Sequence record: MN850630.1
From: Escherichia phage naam
Reading direction: 5' to 3' (one strand)
DNA: 64,000 nt
The notes beneath the pieces are model-generated. The model saw nothing but the letters and a program-made list of their open reading frames with translations. It had not been told where the DNA came from and searched no databases. A program made the position numbers and the translations under genes. This document shows positions 7,650 to 49,959 of the stretch, one piece after another. Position 1 is the first letter of the stretch, and each line of letters begins with the position of its first letter.

Positions 7650-8975
7650 ATGAGCAAAACCAAATTAGAACTTACCTGGATAGGTAAAAACGAGCGCAAA
7701 AAGTTAGAGCCGCACATTTTATTAGAAGATTCTAGCAAGTCTTACCGCAGCCAGAAAGTGACCGAAAACGATATTTTTGATAATAAACTGATTTTTGGAG
7801 ATAACTTATTAGCATTGAAGGCGCTAGAGCAAGAGTATGCAGGCAAAGTGAAGTGTGTTTACATAGACCCGCCATTCAATACCGGGAGGGCTTTTGAGCA
7901 CTACGATGATAGCCTGGAGCATTCCATTTGGCTGGGCTTAATGAGGGATAGGTTAGAAATAATTCGTAATCTTCTAAGTGATGATGGGGTAATATTCGTT
8001 CACTTAGATGATTGCGAAATGGCGTATTTAAAAGTTTTGATGGACGAGATTTTTGGTCGTGCAAATCAGTTAAATACCATATCGATGACCACAAATTCCC
8101 CTTCGGGATTTAAGGCAACAGGAGCCACAGTTTTCTCCACAGCAAACTTTTTGCTTGTATATGCAAAAGATCGCACCCAGAAACCGCTTAACAAAATCTA
8201 TATACCTAAAGGGTACGATACAGGATATAACAAATACCTATTAAACCCGGATGACCATTATAAAAATTGGACGTGGTGCAGTATTGCCGATGCGTTTGCA
8301 AAGGCCAATGGCTATAAGGATGCAAAAGAAGCCAAGAAAAAACTACCTGACACATTCGATGATGAATTAGCACAATTCGCAATTGATAATGCAGAACGTG
8401 TATTTCAATCTGTTGCAATTGGTGGTGGTGCTAAAATAAAGAGAAAAGAAACTATCGAGAAGTCAAAGAAAGATAGGGATAAGGTTTATGTACATCCAAA
8501 TGAGGATGTTGAAGGATTTTATATCGCAAATGGTAGGCAAATGGTCTTTTACTCCAATAGACTTTTGGAAATTGACGGTGAGATGCAACCTGCGGAACTA
8601 ATAACTGATGTTTGGACTGATATTAGTTGGAATGGAATAGCAAATGAAGGCGGCGTCAGTTTCAAAAATGGGAAAAAACCAGAAGCGCTTTTGAAGCGGA
8701 TTTTAGAAATGTGTACGCGAGAAGGCGATTTGGTATTGGATTCATTCGGTGGTTCGGGAACTACTGCTGCTGTAGCTCACAAGATGAAAAGACGTTGGAT
8801 CTCAATCGAGCTAGGTGATCATTGTCATACCCATATTATTCCGCGCTTGGAAAAAGTGATCGATGGCGAAGATCAAGGCGGTATTTCTAAGTCTGTAAAC
8901 TGGAAAGGTGGTGGTGGCTTCCGTTATTACAAACTTACCCCGACCTTAATTGCGAAAGATAAGTCTGATCAATAA
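7650..8975 (+). CDS. DNA amino-methyltransferase (N6-adenine or N4-cytosine, beta class)
   Basis: Motif IV DPPF (IDPPFNTG) near the N-terminus and motif I FGGSGTTAAVA near the C-terminus; AAGGAG RBS; 441 aa. Confidence 0.8.
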   Translation: MSKTKLELTWIGKNERKKLEPHILLEDSSKSYRSQKVTENDIFDNKLIFGDNLLALKALEQEYAGKVKCVYIDPPFNTGRAFEHYDDSLEHSIWLGLMRDRLEIIRNLLSDDGVIFVHLDDCEMAYLKVLMDEIFGRANQLNTISMTTNSPSGFKATGATVFSTANFLLVYAKDRTQKPLNKIYIPKGYDTGYNKYLLNPDDHYKNWTWCSIADAFAKANGYKDAKEAKKKLPDTFDDELAQFAIDNAERVFQSVAIGGGAKIKRKETIEKSKKDRDKVYVHPNEDVEGFYIANGRQMVFYSNRLLEIDGEMQPAELITDVWTDISWNGIANEGGVSFKNGKKPEALLKRILEMCTREGDLVLDSFGGSGTTAAVAHKMKRRWISIELGDHCHTHIIPRLEKVIDGEDQGGISKSVNWKGGGGFRYYKLTPTLIAKDKSDQ

Positions 8976-25793: not shown

Positions 25794-25821
25794 TTGACAC
25801 GCTGCAAAATTTAAGTAAACT
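25794..25821 (+). promoter_or_regulatory. sigma70-like promoter with 5' leader hairpin
   Basis: TTGACA, 16-bp spacer, TAAACT; leader stem-loop GGCGGGAATGTTTCCCGCC before the RBS. Confidence 0.5.
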
Positions 25822-25869
25822 AGACACAAAAGGCGGGAATGTTTCCCGCCAGCACAAAGGAAAAAGATC

Positions 25870-26265
25870 ATGAATAAGAACGTACGCCGCATCATGAACG
25901 AACTGGCAAACGATGAAAAAATTATTGATATGCATTTGGTCAACATTTGCCGCCGTTGTGTAACATATAACAACCGCGCCGCAAAAGCGCGTGAGATGAA
26001 CGCAAAAGGCACCTTAAAGCCCTTTCAGGTGGTTGTAAAATCTATAACTAGCGCAGCAGGCCAGGCGCAGGACCACAACAACGAGAGCGCTAATATTGAT
26101 CCGTCTTACGTAATGAAACGGATCCGGACTTGCAAGAATAAAGAGCAGGTATATAACGTCATAGATTGGCTGGACTCCCTGGGCGATGTGGTTTACAATA
26201 GGTTTTCTGCAGCTATCGAGATCCAGCTTGACAGATTGGACGGGAAAGTACTAAAAACTTATTGA
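25870..26265 (+). CDS. hypothetical protein
   Basis: AAGGAAAAAG RBS; 131 aa. Confidence 0.6.
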   Translation: MNKNVRRIMNELANDEKIIDMHLVNICRRCVTYNNRAAKAREMNAKGTLKPFQVVVKSITSAAGQAQDHNNESANIDPSYVMKRIRTCKNKEQVYNVIDWLDSLGDVVYNRFSAAIEIQLDRLDGKVLKTY

Positions 26266-26345: not shown

Positions 26346-26465
26346 ATGAGCACTACACGCCAGCACACAAAGGTAACCATCATCGTTTGCATCATTGGGT
26401 ACATCCTGGCGCAAATGTTGATGGGTAGCGCCAACGGTGTCGCAAAATTTTTCTTAAACTTTTAA
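26346..26465 (+). CDS. small hydrophobic peptide (39 aa; not in ORF track)
   Basis: ATG 7 nt after AGGAGG; MSTTRQHTKVTIIVCIIGYILAQMLMGSANGVAKFFLNF. Confidence 0.5.
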   Translation: MSTTRQHTKVTIIVCIIGYILAQMLMGSANGVAKFFLNF

Positions 26466-26493
26466 TTGACAAGCTAACTTAAATCGATATAAT
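26466..26493 (+). promoter_or_regulatory. sigma70-like promoter (consensus)
   Basis: TTGACA, 16-bp spacer, TATAAT. Confidence 0.6.
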
Positions 26494-26544
26494 AAGCACA
26501 TAAACGGGAAAACTTCCCAGAACACACAAAAGGAGAAAAACACC

Positions 26545-26886
26545 ATGACTACTATGACCGCCTCAGAAAAAGCTATGCAGATCGCTGAACTGAAAAAACA
26601 GATCGCAGACCTTGAGAATAAGATCGATAACTTTGAAATCGACGAGGACAAGTACGACGAAAACTATGATGAATGGTTAGACGAGATCTACGGCGAAATT
26701 ATGATCGGAAACATTTCTTTTCTTCCGTCGCGTATCCTCAAGGAGCTAGATCCTATCGCTTACCGCTGCGGATTTAGCGACTACATCGACAGCCTGGATA
26801 TTGAGGACGATGAAGAATACCAGGAATTACAGACAGAGTTAGAAGAAGCAAAAGAAGAGCTTGCGGAGCTGGAAGAAAACGAGTAA
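26545..26886 (+). CDS. highly acidic coiled-coil protein
   Basis: AAGGAGAAAAA RBS; 113 aa, strongly D/E-rich. Confidence 0.6.
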   Translation: MTTMTASEKAMQIAELKKQIADLENKIDNFEIDEDKYDENYDEWLDEIYGEIMIGNISFLPSRILKELDPIAYRCGFSDYIDSLDIEDDEEYQELQTELEEAKEELAELEENE

Positions 26887-26888
26887 GC

Positions 26889-26932
26889 TTATTTTTAGAT
26901 GGCCTTGACACCAGGGCCATCAATAAAGTAAA
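26889..26932 (+). promoter_or_regulatory. conserved 44-bp promoter cassette, copy 2
   Basis: Identical to copy 1 across the palindrome and -35. Confidence 0.55.
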
Positions 26933-26975
26933 CTTTATACTGTTAACACTGAACTAATGCATAGGAGTTAAAACC

Positions 26976-27221
26976 ATGGCAGCACTAATCACCAAATATT
27001 ATGCCCCTACCAACACCAAAAGCGCCCGTATCATGGTAAAAGGCTTCGGACGTAAAAAGGTGTACACCTGGGATTATGCCTTAGACACGGAAGACAACTA
27101 CACCAACGCGATGACCGATTTTATTAATGATCTGAACACGCGGATCTTGACAAATTATAAAATTACCGATATTGCCTATATAGGGGAAGGCGGGATCTGT
27201 TTTGTCGGTATCGTCAAATAA
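26976..27221 (+). CDS. hypothetical protein
   Basis: TAGGAG RBS; 81 aa. Confidence 0.6.
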   Translation: MAALITKYYAPTNTKSARIMVKGFGRKKVYTWDYALDTEDNYTNAMTDFINDLNTRILTNYKITDIAYIGEGGICFVGIVK

Positions 27222-28078: not shown

Positions 28079-28339
28079 ATGCGTAAATTAAAAAATTTTG
28101 ATAAAGTTGATGTTGTCCTGAATAATTTTTACTACTGCAACAACAAGGCCATTTGGTGGCGTGATAGTTCCACCGATAAAGTTAAAGCTCGCTTTCTCCA
28201 AGGGCACTGGCAAGGCCGTCCAGTGATTAAAATACTGGGGCAACTGGTAGCGTTTAAAAATTGCCGCCGTGTTGATGACGTTGAAGAGATCTTGAACATT
28301 TTACGCCACAATAATTTAAAAAATAGTGTTGACAAGTAA
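28079..28339 (+). CDS. hypothetical protein
   Basis: AAAGGAG RBS; 86 aa. Confidence 0.6.
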   Translation: MRKLKNFDKVDVVLNNFYYCNNKAIWWRDSSTDKVKARFLQGHWQGRPVIKILGQLVAFKNCRRVDDVEEILNILRHNNLKNSVDK

Positions 28340-28356
28340 ATCTCGATAAGTATACT
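28329..28356 (+). promoter_or_regulatory. sigma70-like promoter with 5' leader hairpin
   Basis: TTGACA, 16-bp spacer, TATACT; leader GGCGGGAAAACTTCCCGCC. Confidence 0.55.
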
Positions 28357-28413
28357 TAAACACACAGGCGGGAAAACTTCCCGCCACTAACAAAGAAAAT
28401 AGGAGAAAATATC

Positions 28414-29037
28414 ATGACCACCGTTAACATTACCACAGGTTACAATTTATCTTTCGACGTGCTGACCGACGAACAAAAAGAAAAAGCTATTGAAATGGTC
28501 CGCGAAAGAGAAGAACACAGCGGGGATAATTTTTTTGCAGAAAGTGTAATTGAACACTATAAAGAATATGTCTTTCCAGAGTACGGCCTTGAAGATACCG
28601 AAGTACGTTGGTCCGGCTTTTGGTGTCAAGGCGATGGCGCGTCAATCAGTGCTGAAAACGTGGATTTAGAAAAATTCTTGCGTAAAGTAAAGGCCCTGAC
28701 CAAGTTCCGATCAATTCGTCACTTGTTCGGCACAATGCACGATGGCGAGTTATCAGCCAGTGTTGAACGTATCCCGTTTAGCCATTATCATCACGAAAAC
28801 ACAATAGGAGGGTGCATCGATACTAATTGGCTAGACCTGACCACCAAGCAAGAGGACAAAGTTGAAGAGCTGGAAGAGCTGATCACCGAGACGGTACGGG
28901 AGCTATCACGCAAGGTTTACGTAGACCTGGAGGAGGCCTATCTTGAACAGTTTACTACCGAAAACCTGATCGGCCTTATTGAAGCCAATGATTGGCGGTT
29001 TGATGTGGATGAATATGGGGAGATGAGTTTTTCATAA
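28414..29037 (+). CDS. hypothetical protein
   Basis: TAGGAGA RBS; 207 aa. Confidence 0.65.
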   Translation: MTTVNITTGYNLSFDVLTDEQKEKAIEMVREREEHSGDNFFAESVIEHYKEYVFPEYGLEDTEVRWSGFWCQGDGASISAENVDLEKFLRKVKALTKFRSIRHLFGTMHDGELSASVERIPFSHYHHENTIGGCIDTNWLDLTTKQEDKVEELEELITETVRELSRKVYVDLEEAYLEQFTTENLIGLIEANDWRFDVDEYGEMSFS

Positions 29038-37710: not shown

Positions 37711-37926
37711 TCAGTCCAGCGGTTCATCCTCTACTTCACTGAAATCAATGTTCATGGTCTCTTCCCAACCATCGATCTCAGCACAAGAGTGGAGTTCTTT
37801 AGGGTTTACTCCCAAAGCCTCAGCAACAGAGTCTATATTTAACACCTCTGGCAGGTATGATTCATCGAATTCAAGGTAAATCAGGCCACGAGTGTTGTCA
37901 GCTCCACCAAATATCTCTATCTTCAT
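37711..37926 (-). CDS. small acidic protein (MK[IV][EK] paralog family)
   Basis: MKIEIFGG N-terminus, acidic C-terminus; most downstream gene of the minus-strand block. Confidence 0.55.
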   Translation of the reverse strand: MKIEIFGGADNTRGLIYLEFDESYLPEVLNIDSVAEALGVNPKELHSCAEIDGWEETMNIDFSEVEDEPLD

Positions 37927-38047: not shown

Positions 38048-38260
38048 TCATAGTCTACCACCTCTGAACTCTTCGTGCTCAGGCATAATAGAGAACCAGA
38101 TATCTACGATGTCCTCCCACGTCAGGTCATCAGCCTCAGGATCTGTCTGGGACGAAGATGAAGAGTCCTCAGAATCTAAGTTTTCCTCTTTAACTGGCTC
38201 ATCCAAGGGACATATGGTCACTCCTTTGGATGTCTCTTCAGATGCATGTGTGTTGATCAT
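38048..38260 (-). CDS. highly acidic small protein
   Basis: 70 aa, strongly D/E/S-rich (DSEDSSSSSQTDPEADD). Confidence 0.5.
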   Translation of the reverse strand: MINTHASEETSKGVTICPLDEPVKEENLDSEDSSSSSQTDPEADDLTWEDIVDIWFSIMPEHEEFRGGRL

Positions 38261-38620
38261 GTCCCACCTGTGAGTATTCCGGCAACAGCCGCTATGGACG
38301 TAATGATCATCAGGATCACCACTAAAACTTCGGACAATGTTCTCATTGTGTATTCCATATTCTACAAACTATGTGTGGATACTATCACGAGAGCGGTAAT
38401 GTGTCAACAGAAACGCCGCGAGGGTTTGGTTAAAATCCGAGCGTATGGTGATTTGGGTCAAAACGGACGTGCGTTCTCGCTACGCTCGAAAGAGAGATTT
38501 GTTTGTAGGAAGCTCTTAAACGCTCTGTAATGAGATTATCTGTCCAAGGTATGCAATCGTGCACCAGATAAAGAAAAGGACGCCACAGAGCGTCCTAGGT
38601 GTCTTAAATTTGATATTTTG

Positions 38621-49144: not shown

Positions 49145-49429
49145 CTACCAGGTCACTGTCAAGTAGGCAACTGTGTTATTTTTCTCCGGAGAGATGCCAA
49201 CAACATCCACCTGCAGACCTCCTGCCCTCAAATCCCCAACAATGTGTGGGAAGTAGTCTGAGAGGTGTGATGGGAGATTTATCGAAAATCCACATCCCAG
49301 AAAGCCTGCTAACGCTTTATTTTGTATCTCCCCAACAATCGCATCATAAATAGAGTTAAGCTCGTCAGGAAGCGTTACAGGACGTTTTAGCGCTAACTGG
49401 TGCAACTTGTCCTTAGCACTCATTTTCAT
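49145..49429 (-). CDS. hypothetical protein
   Basis: ATG at 49429 overlaps the methyltransferase stop (ATGA); track ORF 49145..49498. Confidence 0.5.
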   Translation of the reverse strand: MKMSAKDKLHQLALKRPVTLPDELNSIYDAIVGEIQNKALAGFLGCGFSINLPSHLSDYFPHIVGDLRAGGLQVDVVGISPEKNNTVAYLTVTW

Positions 49430-49959
49430 TTCAAGTCTGCCTCTGGTGGTGCCAACCACATAAATGGCGGCAAGTCTAGACGGTTTTTCTTGTCCCATAC
49501 AAAATATGCATATGCCTGCCCATCCGTTCTACCATTAGATTGGAATGACGGACGCTTAGATATTGTGATCACAGTGGTAGGTGCATTATCAAGCCACCAT
49601 TCAAATCTGGCCTTGCTTTCCAGAAAATTAAGACGCAAAAGCATAATAACTACGTCGGCATCTTTCAACGCCTTGTCCACAAACTCACGAGCCAGGCTGT
49701 ACGGCGGGTTGGTGATAATACAGTCAACATGGTTGTATTCTGTATTCAGATAGTCAACACCTTCTTGGATTTCTCCCCATGCAGATCCTAACGGCATACG
49801 GGAGTAGAACACACCTGAGGCACTATTCCTGCAAGGCTCTAAGTAGGTCCAGTCTTCTGGGAACGGAATAAGGTAATACAGCCCTTCTGCACACCACTCC
49901 GGTGTCACATACTCATCGTAGGCGTTACGTTGTTCATCAGGTTTTCTAGCACAAGTCAT
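49426..49959 (-). CDS. phage Dam-like DNA N6-adenine methyltransferase (small)
   Basis: Motif IV IITNPPYSL and upstream EYVTPEW; 177 aa. Confidence 0.7.
   Translation of the reverse strand: MTCARKPDEQRNAYDEYVTPEWCAEGLYYLIPFPEDWTYLEPCRNSASGVFYSRMPLGSAWGEIQEGVDYLNTEYNHVDCIITNPPYSLAREFVDKALKDADVVIMLLRLNFLESKARFEWWLDNAPTTVITISKRPSFQSNGRTDGQAYAYFVWDKKNRLDLPPFMWLAPPEADLK

Follow-up and report, generated by a model that had tools for sequence, protein, structure and literature searches.

A113, an acidic, probably early protein of Escherichia phage naam, belongs to a large uncharacterised phage family and is a candidate nucleic-acid mimic

The 64,000-nucleotide stretch of Escherichia phage naam considered here (record MN850630.1; hereafter the window) encodes two small and strongly acidic proteins, which we call A113 and B70. 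A sequence-only reading had put both forward as candidate DNA mimics or anti-restriction proteins, each expressed from its own strong promoter. Its starting point is borne out by composition: the peptides it quoted are present, and aspartate plus glutamate (D+E) account for 31.9% of A113 (36 residues, with 9 lysine or arginine residues, a net charge of -27 and an isoelectric point of 4.05) and 27.1% of B70 (19 residues). In acidity the two rank first and second among the 174 ATG-initiated open reading frames (ORFs) of at least 60 aa in the window. Twelve window ORFs reach at least 21% D+E, so A113 and B70 form the extreme end of a broad tail rather than isolated outliers. They are also mutually unrelated and therefore not to be handled as a single class. 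As outlined below, A113 belongs to a large, uniformly acidic phage gene family with a strongly conserved core, for which a nucleic-acid-mimic role is possible, while B70 is a poor fit to such a role.

Both are genuine genes, as attested by matches to PHROG families and by annotated coding sequences (CDSs) in more than 100 rV5-like genomes, where identical or near-identical copies of each are labelled "hypothetical protein". The 25.0-29.5 kb region of the window, which holds A113, is 97.6% identical to Escherichia phage nom, whose counterpart of A113, nom_172, is identical in DNA and likewise annotated "hypothetical protein"; the same region is 91-97% identical to more than 100 further rV5-like phages of the genus Vequintavirus. 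A113 has the strong promoter of its own that the sequence-only reading claimed, with a perfect match to the consensus, followed by a leader hairpin and a strong ribosome-binding site (Table 1). The gene sits on the plus strand within a series of small genes, most with individual TTGACA/TAnAAT promoters, and promoter-like sites in this block number 22 in 4.5 kb where 8.0 are expected. Such a promoter-dense block of small genes is the usual signature of early genes, and from it we infer that A113 is probably expressed early. In rV5 itself, 33 sigma-70-type promoters have been described over four transcription units, and the host polymerase is possibly not switched between promoter classes, unlike in T4 (PMC3606486).

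Table 1. Features of the A113 and B70 loci (window coordinates).
Feature	Position	Strand	Details
A113 sigma-70 promoter, TTGACA-16-TATAAT	26466..26493	+	12/12 consensus matches
Leader hairpin CGGGAA-AAC-TTCCCA in the A113 5' untranslated region	26505..26519	+	weak copy, -5.5 kcal/mol, 5 bp
Shine-Dalgarno AGGAG of A113	26531..26535	+	9 nt 5' of ATG
A113 CDS	26545..26886	+	113 aa, net charge -27, PHROG 9294
N-terminal heptad helix of A113 (aa 6-28), arm of predicted antiparallel coiled-coil stalk	26560..26628	+	model and heptads
Conserved acidic core/tip domain of A113 (aa 38-84), YDxxLDE...SRxLKELDPIAYRCGFSDY	26656..26796	+	helix, beta-hairpin, two helices
C-terminal heptad helix of A113 (aa 90-111), Glu at most solvent-facing positions	26812..26877	+	model and heptads
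71-aa acidic ORF directly 3' of B70	37711..37926	-	27% D+E, PHROG 12108
B70 CDS	38048..38260	-	70 aa, net charge -15, PHROG 16356, Vequintavirinae only
Conserved C-terminal part of B70 (aa 40-70), DPEADDLTWEDIVDIWFSIMPEHEEFRGGRL, nearly invariant	38051..38143	-	alignment; holds only predicted helix (aa 48-58)
29-aa hydrophobic ORF, MRTLSEVLVVILMIITSIAAVAGILTGGT	38257..38346	-	stop overlaps B70 start (ATGA)
B70 operon promoter, TTGACA-17-TAGTAT, extended -10 TG	38379..38407	-	10/12 consensus matches
Terminator-like hairpin closing the preceding transcription unit, 5' of the B70 operon	38577..38596	-	sequence

The A113 leader is one instance of a promoter-leader module common to three early genes on the plus strand (25794..25850, 26466..26519 and 28329..28385), in which a TTGACA promoter is followed by ACACA, a palindromic hairpin (CGGGAA-N3-TTCCCG), ACAAAG and a ribosome-binding site. 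The genes under this module are a 131-aa ORF at 25870, A113 at 26545 and an acidic 207-aa ORF at 28414. The hairpin occurs three times against 0.08 expected; the two copies outside A113 are the stronger ones (8 bp, -14.6 kcal/mol, z = -3.4 and -5.4). It could serve as a 5' stabiliser of the mRNA, as an RNase site or as an operator. The 207-aa protein (28414..29037, plus strand; 22% D+E, PHROG 5162, no Pfam match) carries a GFWCQGDGASI motif and is another early gene. Just 3' of the A113 stop codon lies a 7-bp hairpin, GATGGCC-(10 nt)-GGCCATC (26898..26921, plus strand), whose loop includes the -35 box (TTGACA) of the promoter that serves the next gene (26905..26934); as no T-run follows, it is not a standard terminator.

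A113 matches PHROG 9294 (E = 2e-53) and, through its middle section, PHROG 9396 (1.5e-10) and PHROG 37123 (4e-10), and its family is also catalogued as pVOG VOG2063; none of the four entries has a function, a name, a Pfam model or a structure attached. When 1.84 billion representative sequences were searched with a profile, 3,851 clusters at 50% identity were recovered with E <= 1e-3, and 1,832 with E <= 1e-10. Among the members that carry a source name, none has a functional one. Searches of Pfam, NCBIfam and PADLOC with A113 and B70 returned weak coiled-coil noise only (GvpG, HalX, STAT, LmuB, SbcC-like), and some homologues are named "GvpG", "SbcCD ATPase" or "Zn-ribbon protein" at source, names that were set aside as artefacts of the same kind.

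What the homologues have in common is a core of about 47 residues, YDxMLDE..G.V.I.G..F..SR.LKELDPIAYRCGFSDY, whose tip motif can be written ELDPIAYRCG.SDY. Among 192 core segments, D69 is conserved in 191, A72 in 189, L65 in 183, D79 in 181, P70 in 178, Y41 in 174, G76 in 173, S62 in 172 and Y73 in 170. A113 has every residue of the family profile (Y41, L45, D46, S62, L65, D69, P70, A72, Y73, G76, D79 and Y80). Core cysteines were considered as metal ligands and rejected: their positions swap freely with I, V, A and G, which marks them as buried residues, and A113 retains one.

Acidity extends across the whole family. Each of 182 diverse members is net negative, with a median charge of -27, the value of A113 itself, a median length of 119 aa and a D+E fraction of 0.30, so chance is no explanation for the acidity of A113. 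The core has a mean charge of -8 (range -2 to -12), and the C-terminal tail a median of -14 over 37 aa. Family-wide heptad scores exceed those of shuffled controls both in this tail (0.83 vs 0.49) and at the N-terminus (0.74 vs 0.51). At positions outside the heptad core, the C-terminal helix is 58% D/E and 6% K/R across the family; in A113, where its heptad score is 1.0, the corresponding figures are 67% and 7%.

AlphaFold2 yields a confident model of A113 (predicted local distance difference test, pLDDT, 91.4; predicted template modelling score, pTM, 0.69) from a 34-sequence alignment. The model comprises helices at residues 6-28 and 34-49, a beta-hairpin at 52-59, paired helices at 61-68 and 70-83, and a final helix at 90-111. 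Taken together, secondary structure and heptads fit a predicted antiparallel coiled-coil stalk in which the heptad helices from either end of the protein pair up and the conserved core forms the tip. The most conserved columns (D69-P70, S62, A72, L65 and Y41) are helix caps or buried positions, which suggests a rigid scaffold that presents acidic side chains. A Foldseek search of the PDB gave a best match of E = 1.8, to prefoldin beta, among matches that were mostly generic coiled coils; searching the PDB by sequence and by profile gave no significant match either (best phmmer E = 0.22, to prefoldin), and a structure search of BFVD found uncharacterised phage proteins only. With no significant PDB match in fold or sequence, A113 is no structural relative of any solved DNA mimic, and its tip domain is without a recognisable solved relative. 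Structure prediction, which the sequence-only reading had named as a check, gives A113 a confident model with a Glu-coated helix and no fold match, and B70 is predicted to be mostly disordered.

Family members vary around the core. Short, core-only proteins of 55-98 aa, without coiled-coil arms, are common, and a few members have CPIC-type zinc-ribbon-like tails in place of the C-terminal helix. Long homologues of 211-837 aa (recorded as P0116, P0117, P0118, P0120, P0121, P0128 and P0194; locus L004, 8001..10514) contain two tandem acidic cores followed by unrelated modules, several with a C-terminal membrane anchor. The module boundaries of these long proteins are marked by repeated MAESF / GAETFGAE motifs, which we take to resemble S/A/G-x-E prohead protease sites. 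One such gene lies 2.5 kb 3' of a terminase-like gene, on a 145-kb contig with almost no Pfam or PHROG matches. The long tandem-core homologues may be processed, packaged polyproteins.

By tblastn the family occurs in phages of Escherichia, Vibrio, Pseudomonas, Klebsiella, Proteus, Providencia, Acinetobacter, Serratia, Microbacterium, Gordonia and Clavibacter; every copy is labelled "hypothetical". In T7-like phages the homologues are located in the class I early cluster. For instance, Proteus phage 309 (Autographiviridae) encodes a 71-aa homologue in the early cluster at its left end, alongside a genuine Ocr (PF08684, E = 1e-43), and Providencia phage PSTCR2 a 67-aa homologue directly 3' of an S-adenosylmethionine (SAM) lyase gene (PF23780, E = 3e-34) and 5' of the phage RNA polymerase gene. 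In the marine and other contigs examined, the homologue stands in arrays of small genes of unknown function, and no constant partner gene was seen. Among 72,556 plasmid records the family has a single match, of 96% identity, in a 137.6-kb record that was discounted as evidently a mis-filed Vequintavirus genome. None of 5,426 complete E. coli genomes matches the A113 gene region (26400..27000) at the DNA level, and when 185,579 species genomes were scanned with a pattern built on a narrow alignment, the family turned up in three contigs of metagenome-assembled genomes only. These absences from plasmids and E. coli genomes, together with the three contigs, point to a phage gene family, and it seems to reside mainly in lytic-phage-sized genomes and to be early where context can be interpreted.

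A literature search found no mention of the core motif, of the PHROG or VOG identifiers, or of any Vequintavirus anti-restriction gene; the CRISPRi-ART paper employed the Vequintavirus EdH4, with selected genes only. Many copies of the A113 gene are already in sequence records under the label "hypothetical". The core domain common to the homologues, the family-wide conservation of charge and the stalk-plus-tip model appear to be undescribed so far.

Published data on restriction offer a view of what such a protein might do in related phages. The BASEL study describes Vequintavirinae as exceptionally susceptible to restriction-modification (R-M), with phage stocks grown on a restriction-free host (PMC8594841). 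The raw efficiencies of plating (EOP) for Bas57-59 are 0.06-0.83 on the type I system EcoKI and 0.22-1.0 on EcoCFT_I (PMC8594841, S1 Data/S5 Table), as compared with 2.5e-5 to 1.7e-3 on EcoRI and almost no plaques on EcoRV and EcoCFT_II (PMC8594841). Sites are available: EcoKI and EcoCFT_I sites number 9 and 4 in Bas58 and 15 and 5 in Bas59, and lambda-vir, with 5 EcoKI sites, plates at 2.4e-5, and Bas01, with 3, at about 1e-4 (PMC8594841). In the window, 7 EcoKI sites are observed against 6.4 expected, so there is no site avoidance. The rV5-like phages present a puzzle, being nearly immune to type I and highly sensitive to type II and III systems despite expected site numbers. A phage with a counter-measure specific to type I systems would be expected to plate as Bas57-59 do, and Bas59 has a 96% identical copy of A113. 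However, escape from both EcoKI and EcoCFT_I is equal in the phi92-like phages Bas60-62 and the Felix-O1-like Bas63, and EcoKI sites number 12 in Bas61, 14 in Bas62 and 9 in Bas63 (PMC8594841). A tblastn search with two different family members found no homologue in phi92-like or Felix-O1-like E. coli phages. As escape also occurs in phages with no detectable homologue, it does not track the A113 gene. The BASEL efficiencies are compatible with an anti-type I role and not specific to it; they neither refute nor specifically support A113 as a type I inhibitor.

Pfam searches of the window bear on the same subject. Ocr, ArdA, ArdB and SAM lyase are not among the best 25 of the 36 Pfam families matched in 119 window ORFs, and the most acidic window ORFs match no known anti-restriction family in Pfam. 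The window does encode a 441-aa DNA methyltransferase (7650..8972, plus strand; PF01555 N6_N4_Mtase, E = 5e-43, with a DPPF motif) and a 177-aa ORF (49429..49959, minus strand) with an NPPY motif and sub-threshold matches to Dam and the EcoRI methylase, possibly a small Dam-like protein. Evidently neither of these methyltransferase-type ORFs gives protection from EcoRI or EcoRV in related phages.

How might these features be reconciled? We favour, tentatively and as a possibility that falls short of probable, the view that A113 is an early, cytoplasmic, polyanionic decoy that mimics nucleic acid. On this account, the host RNA polymerase would transcribe A113 from its consensus promoter upon DNA entry, and the product would fold into an antiparallel coiled-coil stalk with a conserved acidic tip and a C-terminal helix whose solvent face is almost entirely Glu. 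The tip domain and the rigid acidic surface may then block the nucleic-acid-binding surface of a host protein conserved across bacteria; the target could be an enzyme of defence or DNA processing, or a protein of the nucleoid or of transcription. Its action would be akin to that of T7 Ocr and gp5.9, the functional precedents, whose mimicry is "tailored". The case for mimicry, drawn from conserved acidity, a rigid Glu-coated coiled coil, an early promoter, Ocr and SAM lyase neighbours and phage-only occurrence, is circumstantial. To this extent the DNA-mimic or anti-restriction profile claimed in the sequence-only reading is partly supported for A113, a reasonable candidate by charge, early promoter and phage-only distribution, with no match to any known DNA-mimic family; it is weak for B70, with its predicted disorder, variable acidic stretch and conserved hydrophobic helix.

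Several points weigh against the decoy interpretation. A113 is without sequence or fold similarity to any solved DNA mimic by Pfam, PDB or Foldseek searches, and its AlphaFold2 model is a monomer. Many small proteins of this phage are acidic. The strong conservation of the tip sequence would also fit a specific protein-protein contact in which charge is secondary. In addition, nothing links A113 to restriction, and its case as a mimic stays circumstantial.

Among the alternatives, we regard it as rather unlikely, and as the strongest competitor, that A113 is a host-takeover factor whose tip contacts a specific protein (for example RNA polymerase, the replisome, the division machinery or a protease) without mimicry. 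On the same rather unlikely footing, the acidic coiled coil would be present merely for solubility, spacing or oligomerisation. In accord with such a role, conservation is strongest in a compact, non-repetitive motif, exemplified by D69 (191/192) and A72 (189), core-only members are common, and the gene is early, phage-only and found mainly in lytic-phage-sized genomes. However, the core is always acidic and every member net negative, so charge appears to be under selection, and the conserved residues look structural, as caps or buried positions, and form no obvious interaction patch. A different proposal, which we consider improbable, would place A113 within the phage's own economy, as a chaperone of prefoldin-like or acidic type, or as an adaptor that serves basic phage proteins, and in some phages maybe as a packaged, injected module. 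Here the best fold matches, non-significant as they are, provide the impetus: prefoldin subunits are coiled-coil hairpins with a beta-hairpin at the tip. The long multi-module homologues, with their tandem cores and membrane anchor and one of them close to a terminase-like gene, point the same way. Set against these are the Foldseek E value and the dominance of generic coiled coils among the matches, the location of the rV5-like and T7-like copies among early rather than morphogenesis genes, and the lack of a conserved partner gene in the neighbourhoods examined.

The sequence-only reading had proposed inhibition of restriction enzymes or other DNA-binding defence proteins; in its most specific form this would make A113 an Ocr-like inhibitor of type I R-M, and perhaps of bacteriophage exclusion (BREX) systems. 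A113 is indeed small, acidic and early, Vequintaviruses escape EcoKI and EcoCFT_I despite 9-15 and 4-5 sites, Bas59 among them has the 96% identical copy of A113, and there is neither EcoKI site avoidance nor a known anti-restriction family among the acidic window ORFs to account for it. Yet the equal escape of Bas60-62 and Bas63, phages of groups in which tblastn found no family member, stands against this proposal; the occurrence of homologues alongside a true Ocr or SAM lyase in T7-like phages speaks for a function that does not duplicate theirs; the family is not on plasmids, where type I anti-restriction genes are common; and dozens of other uncharacterised early genes are equally eligible. 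We accordingly judge specificity for type I systems to be just as improbable as a chaperone role. A bolder extension of the nucleic-acid decoy idea is doubtful, although it deserves to be spelled out. The A113 family would form a very widespread, unrecognised class of phage nucleic-acid mimics with a coiled-coil stalk and a conserved acidic tip, at work within minutes of infection or, in some phages, injected as part of a processed polyprotein. It would hit a conserved DNA-handling defence of the host, for instance type I R-M, RecBCD/AddAB or a structural maintenance of chromosomes (SMC)-like complex, and in Vequintaviruses would thereby explain the escape from EcoKI and EcoCFT_I.

B70 presents a different picture. 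Here the promoter that had been assigned to the gene is a shared one: it precedes a 29-aa ORF whose stop codon overlaps the B70 ATG, which makes B70 the second gene of a small operon. The same 4-nt overlap is annotated in the curated genome of phage Murica, where the 29-aa ORF is CPT_Murica147, and the two versions of this ORF differ by 4 synonymous and 0 non-synonymous changes, a pattern indicative of purifying selection. No promoter is predicted between B70 and the 71-aa ORF that follows, which is thus probably in the same operon. B70 matches PHROG 16356 over residues 1-70 (E = 2.8e-49). Its 43 homologues are all short proteins, and every long contig or named record with one is a Vequintavirinae-type genome of 127-141 kb. 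In the alignment the acidic, serine-rich N-terminal half is variable, with indels, and D40, E42, L46-I51 and I54 are invariant, inside the conserved WEDIVDIWFSIMPEHEEFRGGRL stretch. AlphaFold2 predicts a single helix (aa 48-58) with the rest mostly disordered (pLDDT 61.7), and W48, I51, V52, W55, F56 and M59 would fall on one face of that helix, making it amphipathic.

A conserved amphipathic helix, together with translational coupling to a membrane peptide, suggests a short-motif binder rather than a folded DNA mimic, and the case for B70 as a nucleic-acid mimic is weak. The helix is probably a docking element for a partner, which may be the 29-aa membrane peptide translated together with B70. 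That B70 is a short-motif peptide acting with this membrane peptide, or docking its helix elsewhere, is quite possible, if still somewhat short of probable. The overlap of its ATG with the stop codon of an ORF apparently under purifying selection, the low-confidence model with one helix, the contrast between a conserved C-terminal stretch and a variable acidic half, and the restriction to Vequintavirinae all accord with it; the interaction with a partner is read from sequence and model, however, and disordered acidic peptides can still compete for DNA-binding surfaces.

Further observations concern the window and its relatives more generally. Pfam families matched at other window loci include ribonucleotide reductases of both the aerobic and the anaerobic type, PhoH, PIF1-like and DnaB-like helicases, ThyX, a Clp protease domain, a Ribosomal_S30AE hibernation factor domain, a T7 gp1.1-like protein and a CapR homology domain. 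Among the related records, 17-18 in the MG0656xx series are named "Campylobacter phage" (host C. jejuni) and are 94-98% identical to E. coli rV5-like phages across the A113 region; these labels are probably wrong, or the isolates contaminated.

If A113 does act as a mimic or decoy, it would represent a structurally new family of phage proteins for counter-defence or host takeover, with thousands of representatives among phages of Proteobacteria, Actinobacteria and marine bacteria but no Pfam entry, name or structure, and would offer a concrete candidate for the type I escape of rV5-like phages. Even if A113 is not a mimic, the family ranks among the larger uncharacterised families of early genes, now with a confident model.

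Comparison with known systems helps to place both proteins. A113 fails every homology and fold comparison with Ocr, ArdA, ArdB and Gam and is thus no member of those families; neither it nor B70 belongs to any of the four. ArdA, encoded on plasmids and transposons, is acidic, as is A113, and acts at the entry of foreign DNA; unlike ArdA and ArdB/KlcA, A113 has no match to their Pfam families and its family is not on plasmids. To the prefoldin beta subunit the likeness is one of architecture alone, with a non-significant Foldseek E value of 1.8: A113 has no Pfam match to prefoldin (PF01920/PF02996) and no sequence relationship with it, its tip has three extra helices, and it is far more acidic.

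The closest functional parallels are with phage DNA mimics. T7 Ocr (gp0.3, PF08684) acts as a DNA mimic against type I R-M, BREX and RNA polymerase, all of which it inhibits. A113 differs from it in several respects: PF08684 is not matched at E <= 0.1 by A113, nor by B70, whereas the Ocr of Proteus phage 309 scored 1e-43 as a control; the Ocr fold, a dimer shaped like bent B-DNA, has no counterpart in the A113 model; and A113 is set apart by its coiled-coil hairpin and a strongly conserved motif in its sequence. Moreover, A113 homologues co-occur with a true Ocr or SAM lyase and so are not substitutes for them. The resemblances are of another order, namely size (113 vs about 116 aa), similar net charge, an all or mostly helical make-up, an early promoter for the host polymerase, and homologues in the same T7-like early cluster. 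T7 gp5.9 and lambda Gam are small, helical, acidic DNA mimics that inhibit RecBCD (and, for gp5.9, MukBEF), in which carboxylates replace DNA phosphates. For gp5.9, contacts with phosphate-binding residues of RecBCD and MukE have been described as "tailored" mimicry (PMC7617805). A113 departs from both in its predicted intramolecular antiparallel hairpin with an additional tip domain, and in having no Pfam or PDB sequence match and no significant fold match to them. What it has in common with them is a Glu-coated heptad helix that, in the model, presents carboxylates.

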